A DNA stretch of 9,242 bases. Source: a virus (Duplodnaviria; Heunggongvirae; Uroviricota; Caudoviricetes). A program made the position numbers and the translations under genes. The notes under the pieces were generated by a model. That model was not told the origin of the DNA. It did no database searches and saw only the letters and a program-made list of their open reading frames with translations. Positions within the stretch are counted from its first letter, which is position 1, and each line of letters begins with the position of its first letter. The stretch is taken from IMG/VR virus record IMGVR_UViG_2700989544_000006, one strand, 5' to 3'. This document shows, in pieces, positions 53 through 9,242 of the stretch.

Positions 53-79
53 TAAAAAAAAGGCCCGCAAAAGCGAGCC
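53..79 (-). terminator. Rho-independent terminator downstream of the tRNA-like gene
   Basis: Hairpin ggcccgc(62-68)/gcgagcc(73-79) with 4-nt loop; on the minus strand the stem pairs fully with one G-U wobble and is followed by a run of 8 T (plus-strand A run 53-60). Confidence 0.55.
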
Positions 80-93
80 AGGGAAAATAAGTG

Positions 94-169
94 TGGCGCG
101 TTGTACTGGATTCGAACCAGCGACCTGGCGATTATGCGTCGCTCGCTCTCACCACTGAGCTAAAGGGCC
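94..169 (-). tRNA. tRNA-like gene resembling tRNA-Ile2/Met (CAU anticodon), probably a pseudo-tRNA
   Basis: Minus-strand read GGCCCTT-TA-GCTCAGTGGTGAGAGC-G-AGCGA-CGCATAA-TCGCC-AGGTC-GCTGG-TTCGAAT-CCAGT-ACAACGC-G-CCA. D-arm, anticodon arm (CAT at 34-36) and T-arm (GGTTCGAATCC) are canonical. The 3' acceptor strand ACAACGC pairs with 5' GGCCCTT at only 2 of 7 positions, and position 33 is G rather than the near-universal U. Confidence 0.5.
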
Positions 170-204
170 GGGAGCAGAATAATAACGGTCCGTAATTAAT
201 TCCG

Positions 205-230
205 AAATAAAAAACCCGCTCAGTGGCGGG
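205..230 (-). terminator. Rho-independent terminator after the lipoprotein gene
   Basis: Hairpin cccgc(215-219)/gcggg(226-230) with loop tcagtg; on the minus strand it is followed by a T-rich run (plus-strand aaataaaaaa, 205-214). Confidence 0.6.
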
Positions 231-309
231 TTGCTATCACAGCTATATATTTACTTATTATGCCGTTACTAACATTTATCTTCGGCATATAATCGAAAAC
301 AAGGTTTGC

Positions 310-735
310 TTAAAACTCTGCTTTCATTTTATCCGGGAATTTTTTATTTGCAGCATAATAACTACCAAGTATATAAGCGTTCATTTGCTGCTCTACATCA
401 ACCCGACATGCAGCACTAGAACAAGCACCACTGATAAGCCCAAAAGAACTCCCTTTAGCAGAGAGATCAGCTTTAATTTCCTCTACAGTGTTTTTCCCCA
501 TAGCAACTACACACCCTGTAACAATATATCTAGCCTTCACATCATCCATGCTAAGGATAGTGGTTTTCGCAATTTTGCTGTATCCATCATTTTTATAAAC
601 ATCCATGGCAAACGCACGGCAATCTGTATAATACGGACTTGCTTTAACTTGCGAATACTCAGGTAATTTCATACCTGCACAACCAACTAAACAAAAACCT
701 ATCGCTGCTATTAATACCTTTTTCATTACACTCAT
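310..735 (-). CDS. Secreted lipoprotein of unknown function (moron-like cargo gene)
   Basis: N-terminus MSVMKKVLIAAIGFCLVGCAG has a basic n-region, hydrophobic core and lipobox L-V-G-C; the mature part contains 5 further Cys. The true start may be the second ATG (MKKVL, 726). The gene is visibly AT-rich against its neighbours and is bracketed by terminator hairpins. Confidence 0.7.
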   Translation of the reverse strand: MSVMKKVLIAAIGFCLVGCAGMKLPEYSQVKASPYYTDCRAFAMDVYKNDGYSKIAKTTILSMDDVKARYIVTGCVVAMGKNTVEEIKADLSAKGSSFGLISGACSSAACRVDVEQQMNAYILGSYYAANKKFPDKMKAEF

Positions 736-883
736 AACCTAGAAGCATCATTGAACTAATTTATTAAATATTCATCGAGTTTCTGGAATACAGACGTTAC
801 CCATCTCTCCAAAATCTAAAAGATAATAAGAAAAAATGTTTAACGTACCAATCCATTTCATAGTTTCATGAGACATCAGGCAC

Positions 884-906
884 AAAAAAACCCGCTCAGC
901 GGCGGG
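884..906 (-). terminator. Rho-independent terminator (tR'-like) downstream of the Q gene
   Basis: Hairpin cccgc(891-895)/gcggg(902-906) with loop tcagcg; followed on the minus strand by 7 T (plus-strand A run 884-890). Nearly identical to the hairpin at 215-230. Confidence 0.6.
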
Positions 907-954
907 TTCTTAAATCTTATCAACGGTAGACATACAAAGCCCATCGTTGGGAAA

Positions 955-983
955 ATCTTATCCATATTTTTTGAAAAATGCAA
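955..983 (-). promoter_or_regulatory. Candidate late promoter (pR'-like) between Q and the tR'-like terminator
   Basis: Minus-strand TTGCAT (978-983), 17-nt spacer, TAAGAT (955-960). It sits about 30 nt downstream of the Q stop and about 50 nt upstream of the terminator at 884-906, matching the pR'/qut/tR' layout of lambdoid phages. Confidence 0.3.
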
Positions 984-1014
984 GCATCATGTCGCCATCT
1001 TCGGCGAAAATCAT

Positions 1015-1767
1015 TTATCTTGTCACTTTTCTCAATTGTGTCTCTGCATATGCTTCTTCCTGCCAGCACTTTGTAACCAGTTTATCAATGATATCTGCAT
1101 ATCCTTTGTACCACTGATAATCCGTCAGGGCAGGTACCAGCTTCTGGACATGATGCCGCGCCAGTGTGGTTGGTAAACGGCTAAACCGGTTACCATTGCA
1201 ACGCCCACAAATCTTATAAACAGGCGTACCATGAAGCCGGGTTCTTTTTTCATCCAGGACAATACCTTTACCCTTACACCCTCTGCACGCTGTGCTGACT
1301 TCTCCCTTACCATGACAATGCTGACATAGTTCCTTCACCCACTCTTCCTTGATAACAGATTCCCCGCTTCTGGAGTGTTTCACCACCTCGCGCAATACAT
1401 TATGAAATCCAGTACCAGCACAATGCTCACAGCGAGCCTTACTTGCCGCAGACCTGGAATAATCAGCAAAGGCAAAATTCACAAGGTAAGGGATGATCTG
1501 TAACCGGGTTTCTTCACTCAATTTATTCAATGTCGGGTTATCCAGTGCCATCGCGTAATTGAGCAGACCTTCAATCGCAAACTGAGGATCCTGAACACCA
1601 ACTTTTGCCAGGAATAAGGCAAAACCCAGTGGTGCTTTCGACTGCACCATCCCCTGCGCAGCAATTACATCCGTAATTGTTAAACCACCAGAGCCTGTCG
1701 CCGGTGCGTCATCACTCAGTTTTGGAGATTTTGGGGAGTAATATTTTGGTAAGGCTTCAAGGTTCAT
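1015..1767 (-). CDS. Late-gene antitermination protein Q (Q82/QuuQ-like, zinc-binding)
   Basis: 250 aa. Four CxxCxGxG-type repeats (CEHCAGTG, CQHCHGKG, CRGCKGKG, CGRCNGN) form a DnaJ-like zinc-finger cluster. It is the last early gene before the late region. RBS GGAG 7 nt upstream of the ATG. Confidence 0.7.
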   Translation of the reverse strand: MNLEALPKYYSPKSPKLSDDAPATGSGGLTITDVIAAQGMVQSKAPLGFALFLAKVGVQDPQFAIEGLLNYAMALDNPTLNKLSEETRLQIIPYLVNFAFADYSRSAASKARCEHCAGTGFHNVLREVVKHSRSGESVIKEEWVKELCQHCHGKGEVSTACRGCKGKGIVLDEKRTRLHGTPVYKICGRCNGNRFSRLPTTLARHHVQKLVPALTDYQWYKGYADIIDKLVTKCWQEEAYAETQLRKVTR

Positions 1768-5780: not shown

Positions 5781-6970
5781 TTGCGCCCCCTTACCTCTGA
5801 AGAGTTCAGCGACGAATGAATAAGACGGGCAAGAAATGCCGCATCGTTAATTCGGTCATACAGACTTACAGCCAGCGGTGATTCAGCTTTTTCCAGCATG
5901 GGATAAAGCTGCTGCAACCAGACCTGATGAATTGATGAAATGTAGGAATAGAGAACGCTGGCGTTATGTGCAACGTCGCTCGGTACAGAGGGCTTTGAAA
6001 GCTGTTTCTCCATCTGGTTAAAGGCATTGATGTATGCCTCTTTGAACTGGGCAGCACGTTTGCCAGTGAAGCCCATTGCCAGGAACGCGAAGCCGTCGCG
6101 GGTGATGTGGTAGCAAGGAAGTTTGCGAGTACCGCCGTTGGGCTGGTGTACCAAAATTGATGTCTCCGCAAAATTGCGGGCACAAAACTCTGGAGAACAA
6201 TCCAAAATGCGGATCTTTTTCAGAACATCGTCATGACGTTTAGAGAAGAAGTCAGCAACAGCCAAAGAAGATGTAACAGCCTGACCATCAACGATGGCAA
6301 TTTCAGGTTGAGAGAGGGTTGGGAGAGTAGTCATGGTGACAGCCCCGGTAGTCAGTTTTTCAGAAAACTCACCACATGGGACGCCAATCACAGAGGTGGT
6401 GAGACGTACAGGGTTGGCGTTACCGGAGACTACCGAACCCGGCCCGACCGAAGTCGGCCCTGTACGCCCCACCATAATTTGGGCGTAGCAATGCTCATGA
6501 CACGAAAAAACCGCATGAGCGCGGTTATGCTCAGTAATCAATTTCAGGACGCCAATCCCGGCACCCGCTTTATAAGGTGCCTGAACAGTGTAACGTCCCG
6601 GAATGGCAGAATCAATGTGCTGGTGGTCCTTCACACTCAACAAAATCACGCCTGAATTTCCACAAAGGACTAAAGCACTCATGCGGGTAGTCTTTGCGAA
6701 GATAGATAACGCGCTGTGTTTCTGGCTCCCAACGAATGACTCTGACGGGCACTCCGTAGTGATCTTTGAACCAGCGGTTAACTTGTCGCAAAGGACTGTC
6801 TCCTTCTGCCGGTTGAAATCACCCACAGCCCACTCTGCAAAGCTGTGGGTTACAATTTCCCTGTCACCTGGTACATTCACTGCATAGCAATACTCCACCT
6901 TCGCTTTTCCACCCGGTACAGGAAGCGCAATCAGTTGCGAGCGACGGTAGTGTGTTGTTAAACTGTTCAT
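5777..6970 (-). CDS. Composite protein: uncharacterised N-terminal region (about 210 aa) fused to a Rha-family phage regulatory domain
   Basis: Residues about 215-320 ([33 protein letters not shown]...[31 protein letters not shown]) match the Rha domain. The upstream 212 codons are in the same frame with no stop, and the ATG at 6970 overlaps the upstream gene's stop (ATGA). Confidence 0.6.
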
Positions 6971-7776: not shown

Positions 7777-7807
7777 TTCTGTCTCCCGTTAAATTACGTT
7801 AAGCAGA

Positions 7808-7873
7808 AATGTAGGATATCCAACATGCCAATGTCAAGAATCCTACATGGGCATGTGGTAGGATTGCCTACAT
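7808..7873. promoter_or_regulatory. Right operator region (OR) with pR-like promoter for the cro-like gene
   Basis: 18-bp near-palindromic operator ATGTAGGATATCCAACAT (7809-7826), plus related palindromic elements TCCTACATGGGCATGTGGTAGGA (7841-7863) and GTAGGATTGCCTAC (7858-7871), the last overlapping the cI start. Minus-strand promoter: -35 TTGACA (7832-7837), 18-nt spacer, -10 TACATT (7808-7813). Confidence 0.6.
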
Positions 7874-8525
7874 GATGAACATGAGTGATCGTATTCGCCA
7901 AAGGCGAAAAGAACTGAACCTGACACAACAAGCACTGGCTGATTTGACTGGTGTGAACCGTGTCACGGTTACTGGATGGGAAAAGGACGACTACCAACCA
8001 AATGGAGCCAACCTTCAAGCCCTAGCCAACGCACTTAAATGCGATCCTCTGTGGCTTGTTAGCGGAAAAGGCTCGCCTGAACCAAAGATAAATCTAAAAC
8101 CTGAAATATTCGCAGTTAAAAAAGTCCCCCTCATCTCGTGGGTTCAGGCGGGTTCATGGACAATGACGGAGCCTGGTGTCAGGAAAGAAGATGCTGAAGA
8201 GTGGGTTTATACTACCGCCCTTGTATCAGAAATGGCATTTGCACTACGGGTCCGTGGTGATTCAATGACCAATCCCCTCGGCTCACCATCGATACCAGAA
8301 GGTTCTATCGTTATCGTAGAGCCAGATATTATTGATACAGAGTGTATTAACGGAAAAATCGTTGTTGCCCATATCAATGGTGGGCAAGAAGCGACACTCA
8401 AAAAATTTGTTGAGGACTGGCCGAACAGGTATCTCGTCCCACTAAATCCTAACTATAAAACTATTGAATGCGGTGAAAACTGCAGAATAGTTGGTCTTGT
8501 CAAACAAGTAATAATGGATTTTTGA
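7872..8525 (+). CDS. CI-like prophage repressor (HTH plus S24 LexA-like autopeptidase domain)
   Basis: N-terminal XRE-type HTH (LTQQALADLTGVNRVTVTGWEKDD), candidate Ala-Gly cleavage site (VQAGSW), Ser nucleophile in RGDSM and Lys in TLKKF, the CI/LexA architecture. Start could be 7872 or 7881. Confidence 0.85.
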   Translation: MMNMSDRIRQRRKELNLTQQALADLTGVNRVTVTGWEKDDYQPNGANLQALANALKCDPLWLVSGKGSPEPKINLKPEIFAVKKVPLISWVQAGSWTMTEPGVRKEDAEEWVYTTALVSEMAFALRVRGDSMTNPLGSPSIPEGSIVIVEPDIIDTECINGKIVVAHINGGQEATLKKFVEDWPNRYLVPLNPNYKTIECGENCRIVGLVKQVIMDF

Positions 8526-8545
8526 CACATCTTCCTCACTATCGC

Positions 8546-8571
8546 AAAACCGGGGTATCCCCGGTTTTTTT
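8546..8571 (+). terminator. Rho-independent terminator downstream of cI
   Basis: aaaaCCGGGG-tat-CCCCGGttttttt: GC-rich stem followed by 7 T, and A-rich on the 5' side (potentially bidirectional). Confidence 0.7.
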
Positions 8572-8587
8572 ATGAGCCTATCTTTTT

Positions 8588-8641
8588 ATGTAGGATAACC
8601 AACATAAACTCTTGACACTTACATGTTGGATATCCTACATT
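8588..8641 (+). promoter_or_regulatory. Left operator region (OL) with pL-like promoter reading rightward
   Basis: ATGTAGGATAACCAACAT (8588-8605, one mismatch to the OR operator) and ATGTTGGATATCCTACAT (8623-8640, exact reverse complement of the OR operator). -35 TTGACA (8612-8617), 18-nt spacer, -10 TACATT (8636-8641). The promoter core is almost identical to the pR-like promoter. Confidence 0.6.
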
Positions 8642-8799
8642 TGTTTTTAGAGTTGTGGTGAATGCGCAGGCTGATGCGCGAAAGACATTGCAGCTATTGC
8701 GGAAAAGAGCTGTTCGGCGGGGCAATTAAACGCCCGTGAGAGTCTGAAATAACCGCAAGCCGGAGATCAGCACCGGTCACCACAACAGCCACTGCTTTG

Positions 8800-8845
8800 G
8801 CGGTACCAGTTTGTACACTTGCTTCCGGCTGGTACCGCTCTTTTT
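8800..8845 (+). terminator. Hairpin plus U-tract in the pL leader (candidate terminator/attenuator; overlaps a boxA-like CGCTCTTTTTA)
   Basis: Perfect 10-bp stem GCGGTACCAG (8800-8809)/CTGGTACCGC (8829-8838) with a 19-nt loop, followed by TCTTTTT (8839-8845). The sequence CGCTCTTTTTACAA (8836-8849) resembles the boxA consensus of nut/rrn antitermination sites. Confidence 0.3.
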
Positions 8846-8934
8846 ACAAAACAGAGAAGAGCATCACCGGACGACGGGCTCATAACCCAATCCATCCGGG
8901 CGGCTGCCACCGCAGGTGTTCTTCTCTGTTTTGT
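8846..8934 (+). repeat. Perfect 15-bp inverted repeat enclosing a 59-bp GC-rich core in the pL leader
   Basis: ACAAAACAGAGAAGA (8846-8860) and its exact reverse complement TCTTCTCTGTTTTGT (8920-8934), about 35 nt upstream of the RBS of the first pL-operon gene. Confidence 0.5.
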
Positions 8935-8982
8935 GGAGAAACCAACCGGCCTTGCAGGGTCGATATGATGAGGAGCAGCAAA

Positions 8983-9242
8983 ATGGCTAGCGAACGCAGT
9001 ACTGATGTGCAGGCATTTATCGGGGAGCTGGACGGCGGCGTATTTGAAACCAAAATCGGCGCAGTTCTCAGTGAAGTCGCTTCCGGTGTGATGAACACGA
9101 AAACCAAAGGTAAGGTCTCGCTCAACCTGGAAATCGAACCGTTTGATGAGAACCGTGTGAAAATCAAACACAAACTCTCATATGTTCGCCCGACTAACCG
9201 CGGGAAAATTTCCGAAGAAGACACCACCGAAACGCCGATGTA
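8983..9242 (+). CDS. Hypothetical protein, first gene of the pL-like operon (3' end outside the window)
   Basis: ATG at 8983 preceded by GAGGAG 7 nt upstream; open through the window end (MASERSTDVQAFIGELDGGVFETKIGAVLSEV...). Not in the ORF track because it has no stop in the window. It is not Arg-rich, so it does not look like lambda N. Confidence 0.55.
   Translation, partial: MASERSTDVQAFIGELDGGVFETKIGAVLSEVASGVMNTKTKGKVSLNLEIEPFDENRVKIKHKLSYVRPTNRGKISEEDTTETPM

Follow-up and report, generated by a model that had tools for sequence, protein, structure and literature searches.

The leader of phage λ lies between the early promoter pL and gene N, and holds nutL together with a large stem that is an RNase III site modulating N translation. 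Both the cleavage and its effect on N translation were reportedly described by Kameyama et al. in 1991 and by Wilson, Yu and Court in 2002-2004. How the early-left operon is controlled in lambdoid phages without N (SfV, ST64B, mEp460, cdtI and many Stx2c phages) is, to our knowledge, not known. A second related system is STnc100, a multi-copy small RNA (sRNA) of prophages; lysogens transcribe it, and one copy has been verified by Northern blot (PMC5331693, PMC10794520). Its function is described as unclear (PMC12370729), and PasD sRNAs, to which it is related in structure, depend on Hfq (PMC8550237; bioRxiv 10.64898/2026.05.13.724894). Here, we analyze the early-left leader in a 9,242-nucleotide (nt) stretch of viral DNA (IMG/VR record IMGVR_UViG_2700989544_000006; "the window" refers to this whole stretch), which by sequence comparison is assigned to an SfV/mEp460-type lambdoid prophage of Escherichia coli. 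The leader is made up of three separable modules, referred to as elements A, B and C. We give an even chance to the explanation that a pL-like promoter drives an STnc100-like RNA of ~197 nt ending at B, that B attenuates the operon, and that C is carried on the read-through RNA.

An earlier note on this DNA had described an unusually long and highly structured leader, with a U-tract hairpin and an inverted repeat, behind a pL-like promoter. All of the features it listed are present, and the structure lies far beyond chance as judged by folding and z-scores: folding of the whole leader (8648-8990) gave -140.3 kcal/mol (z = -5.2), and none of 100 shuffles was as good. Its length is not unusual for lambdoid phages, since in λ, too, N is preceded by a long structured leader. 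The note overlooked the largest element (8652-8786) and did not notice that the region consists of separate modules; taken as a whole, its reading is partly supported.

Element A, the overlooked one, has the following parts.

8652-8786, + strand: element A, a type-1 "kissing-loop cloverleaf" RNA; the minimum-free-energy (MFE) fold contains its helices P1, P2 and P3
8652-8660 and 8778-8786, + strand: closing helix P1 of 9 base pairs (bp), from fold and covariation
8661-8663, + strand: junction AAU
8664-8679, + strand: hairpin P2, GCGCA-GGCUGA-UGCGC, with its loop GGCUGA at 8669-8674
8680-8756, + strand: hypervariable insert, followed by AA at 8757-8758
8759-8777, + strand: hairpin P3, GCCGG-AGAUCAGCA-CCGG, with its loop AGAUCAGCA at 8764-8772, abutting the 3' strand of P1
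8670-8674 and 8767-8771, + strand: loop-loop pairing of GCUGA with UCAGC

Relatives of A were collected in two IMG/VR scans with cores of 16 and 18 nt, each of which returned at least 120 loci, and 93 distinct elements of 66-222 nt were taken out; all fractions of 93 or 87 given for A refer to the matches listed in those scans. Since the loci were collected through exact matches to a core, this sampling overstates how invariant the cores are; variation in P2 was judged only in the set ascertained through P3, and variation in P3 only in the set ascertained through P2. After removal of the insert from 78 relatives, 95.9% of cells were paired, compared with 81.4% after shuffling. Double changes occurred in 17 of 24 pairs, none of 500 shuffles scored as high, and slid registers came nowhere close. 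In a separate test of P1, made without selection on complementarity, at least 7 of 9 positions were paired in 80 of 94 stem pairs, versus 22% for shuffled partners. Element A is a real RNA structure. Covariation is silent on the loop-loop pairing, for or against, because GCUGA and UCAGC are invariant.

While the scaffold is conserved, the inserts vary from 10 nt, in the 66-nt minimal form of L205, to 164 nt, and 87 of them fall into 72 clusters. One relative (L201 523-744) carries a complete transfer RNA (tRNA), tRNA-Pro(CGG) by ARAGORN, as its insert. In Escherichia phage vB_Eco_CWW26 (L005 2538-2584), the insert copies helix 11 of 16S ribosomal RNA (rRNA), with 33-38 bits to the small-subunit rRNA model (E = 4e-8 to 7e-8) and 29 nt at 86% identity to rrsH 254-282; this unit stands alone among tail genes of the opposite strand and has a strong terminator of its own at its end. 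Mimicry of rRNA or tRNA was rejected as a general property of the inserts, being clear for 16S rRNA in 1 of 87 and for tRNA in 1 of 87, and no match to either was found for the insert of the window. Small open reading frames (ORFs) within A (8663-8740 (+), MRRLMRERHCSYCGKELFGGAIKRP; VVNAQADA...) were likewise rejected as coding, their frames breaking or stopping early in relatives when judged by eye. Since both reading frames are lost in relatives, A is probably not coding.

A separate observation concerns RydB, an orphan sRNA of E. coli K-12 (L318 414-481, -). Its central hairpin GCCGGAGAUAAGCGCCGG resembles P3 of A (GCCGGAGAUCAGCACCGG, 8759-8776), and is directly followed by the 3' strand of a closing helix, as is P3. 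The rydB model scored 13.7 bits, far short of its threshold; RydB could be a degenerate relative of A.

Element A belongs to a very large family of phage RNAs that extends across Proteobacteria. An exact 19-mer of its core occurs in complete elements of prophages from Alpha-, Beta- and Gammaproteobacteria, Desulfobacterota and Bdellovibrionota, and is identical from Rhizobium to Pseudomonas to Desulfocarbo prophages. A copy of 8652-8787 with 98.5% identity is present in the P1-type phage RCS47, where tRNA-Asn and tRNA-Thr precede it at a distance of 82 nt. In T1-like, N4-like, jumbo and lambdoid phages, the outer 30 nt at each side of A share 95-100% identity around an unrelated middle. The element often lies directly behind a -10-like box. 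A terminator follows within 120 nt in 24/93 elements, a tRNA lies on the same strand within 300 nt in 12/93, and an ORF starts 17-45 nt downstream in ~20/93. Several of these ORFs encode N proteins of the λ, P22 and 21 types, and there nutL boxB hairpins are located just upstream of A. In the λ-like phages, both strands of the big λ N-leader stem have their homologues in the flanks of A. Stand-alone units of A plus a terminator also exist on the strand opposite to neighboring genes. A boxA-like (A)GTGCTCTYTYCG precedes the closing helix in many relatives and in tRNA-array copies; in the window, the promoter takes its place.

The Rfam search proposed in the earlier note returned no family for A or C in the window. 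For A, Rfam 15 gave no match at gathering thresholds or at permissive E-values, in the window or its relatives, with chance-level matches only (the rydB hairpin, Guanidine-I at 17.6 bits, and Termite-leu on the cI terminator); C had no match in the window or its relatives either. String searches of the available literature for the A and C motifs gave no match, and supplements on Pas sRNAs contained neither motif. These two RNA motifs are very common in phages yet missing from Rfam.

The architecture of A raises the thought of a riboswitch-like sensor, that is, an aptamer with the topology of purine riboswitches that gates B in the window or N translation in other phages. A closing helix with two hairpins in loop-loop contact, invariant junction and loop nucleotides, a position that follows promoters immediately and precedes terminators or start codons, and the reach of the exact 19-mer across all the groups named above are what such a sensor would lead one to expect. 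However, no convincing antiterminator was found, the best pairing detected by hand being 8 bp with two mismatches and a bulge. The joining region J2/3 tolerates 10-164 nt and even a whole tRNA, a terminator is nearby in only 24 of the 93 copies, and B and C remain unchanged behind unrelated cassettes. No riboswitch family of Rfam matched, with Guanidine-I far from its threshold of 63 bits. We consider a sensor improbable.

The second module, B, is reached through a short linker.

8787-8798, + strand: single-stranded linker between A and B, longer in most relatives, with the conserved motif UUGCUGUGUGUAGUCUUGG
8799-8845, + strand: element B, an intrinsic terminator with stem 8799-8811 / 8827-8839, a 15-nt loop and UCUUUUU at 8839-8845

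The motif UUGCUGUGUGUAGUCUUGG stands before B in most relatives (e.g., L003, L208, L213 and L217), and is shortened to CACUGCUUUGG in the window.

Element B is a selected intrinsic terminator. A G+C-rich hairpin with an immediate U-tract is present, and compensatory changes are observed. The perfect 10-bp hairpin and U-tract described earlier at 8800-8845 were recovered, with inverted arms at 8800-8809 (GCGGTACCAG) and 8829-8838 (CTGGTACCGC) that are 100% complementary, lie 19 nt apart and are followed by TCTTTTT at 8839-8845. Folded alone, 8796-8846 forms a 13-bp stem of -21.2 kcal/mol (z = -4.5), which none of 200 shuffles equaled. A consensus terminator scanner missed B because of the scanner's loop limit of 8 nt. 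Relatives exchange the stem as a whole while keeping a hairpin and a T-run before C, as in GTCGGCGTC/GACGCCGAC, GGCGGCATC/GATGCCGC and GCCCATC/GGTGGGC. At least five unrelated stem sequences are known, each with a T-run at the same spot, and a T-run lies ahead of C in 111/115 C elements that are not linked to tRNA. Of the options listed in the earlier note, a terminator or attenuator is thus upheld by whole-stem compensation.

The same letters had been read as a boxA within an N-type nut site, since CGCTCTT resembles boxA. In fact, the supposed boxA, CGCTCTTTTTACAA, consists of the terminator stem's 3' shoulder and the U-tract that follows it, and reads CGTCCTTTTTAC, CGCCCTTTTTAC, GCATTTTTTTAC or GACCTTTTTAC in relatives. 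Likewise, CGCTCTTTTT at 8836-8845 is the end of the stem plus the U-tract, replaced by CGTCCTTTTT, CGCCCTTTTT, GCATTTTTTT or GACCTTTTT. The boxA of λ-type nut sites (CGCTCTTA / TGCTCTTTAACA type) is bound by NusB/NusE (PMC4807359); no conserved boxA of this kind was found at 8836-8845 in the window or its relatives. No boxB hairpin follows the boxA-like letters, the next structure being the 15-bp helix of C. As the earlier note had remarked, an N gene is lacking, none being found among the ORFs of the window or in the annotated twin locus introduced below. A second site is lacking as well: there is no other copy of A, C or the motif in the window, pR operon included.

A nut site shares its low rating with another proposal, a P4/P1-type antisense immunity RNA acting on the leader. 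Superinfection immunity in SfV-type phages is reported to involve a noncoding RNA (Roberts et al. 2007, cited in PMC3475682). The C4/CI model (RF01695) had no match in the leader, and the leader's internal complementarity does not exceed chance; RNAduplex comparisons of the insert with other leader parts were uninformative. The inserts of all 93 relatives had no 13-mer match, direct or reverse-complement, to their flanks of ±7 kb, and the antisense idea was rejected on these grounds. True C4 antisense RNA (82.3 bits in Rfam) and isrK (59.3 bits) lie at 6392-6479 (-) and 6504-6580 (-) of the window, both in the pR operon, and this region (6392-6580) is a likelier seat of immunity. The pair recurs in a relative (L215) and is probably a P1/N15-type RNA module controlling an antirepressor; its C4-like RNA may be the agent of the RNA-mediated immunity reported for SfV. 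Neither a nut site nor an antisense RNA acting on the leader is at all probable.

Downstream of the terminator, the third module and the segment leading to the first gene have the following features.

8846-8934, + strand: element C, a three-way junction according to RNAalifold on 22 relatives
8846-8865 and 8915-8934, + strand: closing helix of C, from the fold
8867-8899, + strand: long hairpin H1 with apex GACGGGCUCAUAACCCAAUCCA
8875-8888, + strand: copy of the initiator-tRNA anticodon stem-loop, with loop CUCAUAA at 8879-8885 and "anticodon" CAU at 8881-8883
8900-8913, + strand: short, variable hairpin H2
8935-8939, + strand: conserved GGAGA (GGAGAAAC in relatives), present after C in almost all relatives
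8947-8962, + strand: small hairpin CGGCC-UUGCAG-GGUCG before the ribosome-binding site, with moderate support

The perfect 15-bp inverted repeat around 59 nt that the earlier note placed at 8846-8934 was found as 8846-8860 / 8920-8934, and extends to 25 nt at 84%. The surrounding region (8839-8945) folds at -51.2 kcal/mol (z = -8.0). RNAalifold on the 22 relatives yields 33 pairs, 6 of them with compensatory changes, and a closing helix of 19 bp. The paired arms of the leader are thus conserved across relatives, A and C with double or compensatory changes and B through replacement of whole stems, as the folding and covariation checks suggested in that note had called for. GGAGA can pair with the terminator U-tract (8841-8845) in the fold of 8839-8945, which makes the closing helix 25 continuous bp, the size of an RNase III substrate.

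What had been taken for a GC-rich core inside the repeat holds a copy of an initiator-tRNA anticodon arm. These 14 nt (8875-8888) are identical to the anticodon stem-loop of E. coli initiator tRNA (tRNA-fMet), comprising three G-C pairs and CUCAUAA; the reference sequence was verified at 100% in 5426/5426 complete E. coli genomes. The H1 apex GACGGGCUCAUAACCCAAUCCA is invariant among relatives. A search of IMG/VR with the C core gave more than 120 loci, and the core recurs in phages of Salmonella, Klebsiella and Pantoea. In Klebsiella-type phages, C comes directly after tRNA-Asn and tRNA-Arg in the late leader, downstream of Q, and has a 6-bp closing helix followed by NCCA. As an observation apart, TTATGAGCC at 8570-8578, after the terminator of the repressor gene, is the exact complement of the 9-nt GGCUCAUAA in the anticodon-like loop of C, a match of which ~0.07 would be expected by chance in the window.

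The small hairpin at 8947-8962 has counterparts in relatives with the stems CGACC/GGTCG, GGCGG/CCGCC and GCCCC/GGGGC. Its support is moderate because it lies outside the single-sequence MFE structure. An RfaH ops element was considered for GGCGGTAC and set aside; its position 8 is C, where the ops consensus has G.

The leader is modular, and separate parts of 8642-8983 have separate relatives. From 8798 onward, the window and SfV are alike (98.4%). Upstream of B and C, 96/115 loci carry a cassette bounded by GTTGTGR...YCACAAC. Ten unrelated classes of cassette occupy this slot, of which the type-1 A of the window is one and a pseudo-tRNA, using the slot helix as its acceptor stem, is another. 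The ten classes and the 72 clusters among 87 inserts fit independent RNA genes with variable functional regions. The sister cassette of SfV-type phages, taken together with linker and B (L212), scores 49.1 bits against the Rfam family STnc100 (RF02076; threshold 47) over the full length of the model. An sRNA was among the options of the earlier note, and is favored by this score and by the promoter-proximal ~197 nt of the window, which are built like an sRNA.

Like the A+B unit, STnc100 is prophage-borne and ~200 nt long, and the two have a consensus frame in common: a P1 of UGGUG/CACCA, an AAU junction, a final hairpin that stacks on the 3' P1 strand, and a terminator. STnc100 is multi-copy, and the sister cassette that scores as STnc100 sits in the very slot that A has in the window. 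The core of the window is nevertheless of another type, with complementary loops in P2 and P3 and a different insert. Its unit is driven by a repressor-controlled pL, whereas STnc100 has a promoter of its own, and the type-1 core is far more widespread than the Gammaproteobacteria. The unit of the window is not counted as an STnc100 member because the RF02076 model does not detect it.

The promoter and its surroundings, together with the start of the first gene, are as follows.

8588-8605 and 8623-8640, + strand: two 18-bp repressor operators that flank or overlap the promoter, with 89-94% identity to a copy at 7809-7826
8612-8641, + strand: pL-like sigma-70 promoter, with TTGACA at 8612, an 18-nt spacer and TACATT at 8636-8641 (10/12 consensus matches)
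8970-8985, + strand: Shine-Dalgarno sequence GAGGAG at 8970-8975 and yfdP start codon at 8983-8985, from the sequence and the PGAP annotation of the twin locus

The pL-like promoter proposed earlier was thus located (TTGACA, 18 nt, TACATT), with overlapping operator copies, and judging from these it is repressor-controlled. The two operators are mutually inverted (94%). A mirror copy of the promoter is found at 7837-7808 (-), and a 40-nt inverted repeat (85%; 7800-7839 / 8610-8649) brackets the repressor gene, such that near-identical promoter/operator blocks face outward. The predicted +1 is near A8649, and homology with phages of other immunity types begins at 8649. Element A begins 3 nt past this +1, and ~334 nt of structured leader separate the +1 from the yfdP ATG at 8983.

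Gene content was read from an annotated twin locus (L001; 99.6% identical, PGAP annotation, coordinate offset 501 versus the window). It includes a Cro-like gene and a LexA/S24-type repressor (window 7872-8525). The early-left operon runs from yfdP, yfdQ and yfdR through further genes to an exonuclease and a PrtN-type excisionase. Stx2c-converting phages and many E. coli prophages share 99% identity with the window over 743 nt around the leader, and mEp460, cdtI, SfIV and others share part of the same 743 nt. The CPS-53 prophage of E. coli K-12 is without elements A, B and C. In SfV and Salmonella phage F1055 (L003/L208/L293), a conserved segment ACAGGCAGGACGCCCACGAAGTAGCCGCCNGGGGCATAYGAA lies in the first 70 nt after pL. 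A moron follows it in SfV-type phages, where the A-B-C unit lies ~750 nt from pL.

From these parts, a sequence of events can be proposed for the three-module leader. Transcription from pL would start at ~8649, ~3 nt before A, and produce A as a compact, tRNA-shaped RNA in which the closing helix stacks on P3, the loops of P2 and P3 pair, and a phage-specific insert is displayed. Most transcripts would stop at B, 13 nt past A, giving a structured RNA of ~197 nt with a U-tail that might act in trans, possibly with Hfq. Because transcripts would mostly end there, before the early-left genes, B would serve as both the terminator of the sRNA and the attenuator of the operon. Without an N protein, B would set how much transcription reaches yfdP, yfdQ and yfdR and continues to the excisionase. 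Read-through RNA would carry C. Its 25-bp helix may be processed in the manner of an RNase III site, much as the λ N-leader is, and the cut would free the mature messenger RNA of yfdP. At its apex, C may offer the copied anticodon arm of initiator tRNA to a host factor that binds tRNA. If so, N-less phages would share a conserved solution that combines a terminator with an sRNA-like unit before it and a structured RNA after it.

Several points weigh against this account. The A+B unit of the window had no STnc100 match (8400-9242 and 8625-8850, E <= 10), and its kinship to that family rests on position, shared frame and shared terminator. The pL promoter would be repressed in a lysogen, where copies of STnc100 are expressed. 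The loop of B is large (15-19 nt), which makes its efficiency uncertain, and the inserts have no complementarity of 13 nt or more to their ±7 kb flanks. The two loops of A and the AAU junction are conserved to an extreme degree across bacterial phyla, which suggests that they have a specific partner, and the account names none. Finally, the role given to C is one that we infer throughout.

A phage without N must read through B for its excisionase. The earlier note, having seen no obvious N gene and no matching nut site on the pR side, called a put-like or attenuator mechanism a plausible alternative. As a put-like processive antiterminator, nascent A would bind RNA polymerase, resist B and later terminators, and replace N. 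Element A is suitably placed between promoter and terminator, and conservation across phyla is to be expected if its target is as universal as RNA polymerase. The HK022 put system resembles the leader in being an RNA just downstream of an early promoter and upstream of terminators in an N-less lambdoid phage. The resemblance does not extend to sequence or structure: the HK022 pL-nun interval, read by inspection only, has no motif in common with A, B or C, and no likeness of A to putL was seen. The put RNAs of HK022 form two stem-loops, lie behind both early promoters and act in cis, with read-through that depends on the zinc-binding domain of the RNA polymerase β' subunit, whereas the window has a single copy and none in the pR operon. 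Family members also occur in leaders with nutL and N, in tRNA arrays, and as units that end at their own strong terminator, contexts unfit for antitermination in cis. Ten unrelated cassettes can replace A before the same B-C. A put-like role is improbable, though not quite as remote as a nut site, and of the pair named in the note the attenuator stands and put does not.

A purely cis-acting structural leader, as in λ N, is unlikely but deserves more weight. Under this explanation, A and C are folding or processing devices that tune the stability and translation of the first gene, through 5'-end protection, RNase III or RNase P sites, or the joining of flanks, and no trans-acting RNA is made. 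Element A does sit where the λ N-leader stem lies, between flanks homologous to those of the stem; its P1 begins 3 nt from the predicted +1, and ~20 of the 93 listed type-1 elements are 17-45 nt upstream of an ORF start. The insert is dispensable, because that of L205 is only 10 nt, and C can form its 25-bp helix. These observations are offset by a conserved terminator between A and the gene, by stand-alone units of A plus terminator with no downstream gene on that strand, and by the presence of A and C in tRNA arrays. Ten unrelated cassette classes in one slot, and loops that are invariant across phyla beyond the need of simple processing sites, also argue for something other than a cis-acting device.

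The tRNA-like features could instead point to A and C as tRNA-mimicking decoy or effector RNAs, which as the first transcripts after infection or induction would capture or neutralize host factors acting on tRNA or rRNA. Element C presents an exact initiator-tRNA anticodon arm, and the scaffold of A would display phage-specific cargo, elsewhere a tRNA-Pro or 16S helix 11. Possible targets include anticodon nucleases from toxin-antitoxin or defense systems, with initiator tRNA as their substrate, and a tRNA-binding enzyme that is universally conserved. We regard a decoy as somewhat less likely still than a cis-acting leader; if true, the hypervariable cassette slot would be a hotspot of counter-defense at the RNA level. 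Elements A and C are defined sequences with which RNA-based control of lysis-lysogeny or counter-defense can be tested.

Two further features of the window lie away from the leader. Downstream of Q, at ~74-1248 (-) (L001 575-1749), a scabin-related ADP-ribosyltransferase and a subtilase-family AB5 toxin binding subunit are annotated, and look like ArtAB-like toxin cargo in the late region. A partial match to the tRNA model (37.3 bits, model positions 7-64) occurs at 104-163 (-), in or beside the region annotated as the ADP-ribosyltransferase gene in L001.

Returning to the three-module leader, its closest counterpart on the phage map is the λ N-leader, which takes the same place between pL and the first early-left gene. 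The flanks of the λ stem, GGCTTTGGGGTGTG...CACACCACCAAAGCT, enclose type-1 A in λ-like relatives. The large λ stem is processed by RNase III, and C of the window offers a 25-bp helix of RNase III size. Unlike λ, the window is without nutL and N, and the interior of the λ stem is unrelated in sequence; λ is without a terminator before its first gene, whereas the window has B. The motif of A also occurs in N-leaders of λ-, P22- and 21-type phages, and that of C copies the initiator-tRNA anticodon arm. Together, they connect three subjects that have so far been treated apart: STnc100/PasD-like prophage sRNAs, the tRNA arrays of phages and the classical λ N-leader.

No tRNA was found in the leader by ARAGORN, nor any match to the Rfam tRNA model at E <= 10, and A is without a T-loop or D-loop consensus. 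In overall shape, A resembles tRNA and the tRNA-like RNAs P4 CI, P1 C4 and bacterial YrlA, all of which have a closing helix stacked on a terminal hairpin. The docking of its second hairpin on the P3 loop corresponds to the D-loop/T-loop elbow of tRNA, with A using 4-5 Watson-Crick pairs. Forms of A of 82 nt are cloverleaves, like tRNA. Both A and C are also present within tRNA arrays of phages, on the same strand as the tRNAs, and the tRNA-linked copies of C end in NCCA.

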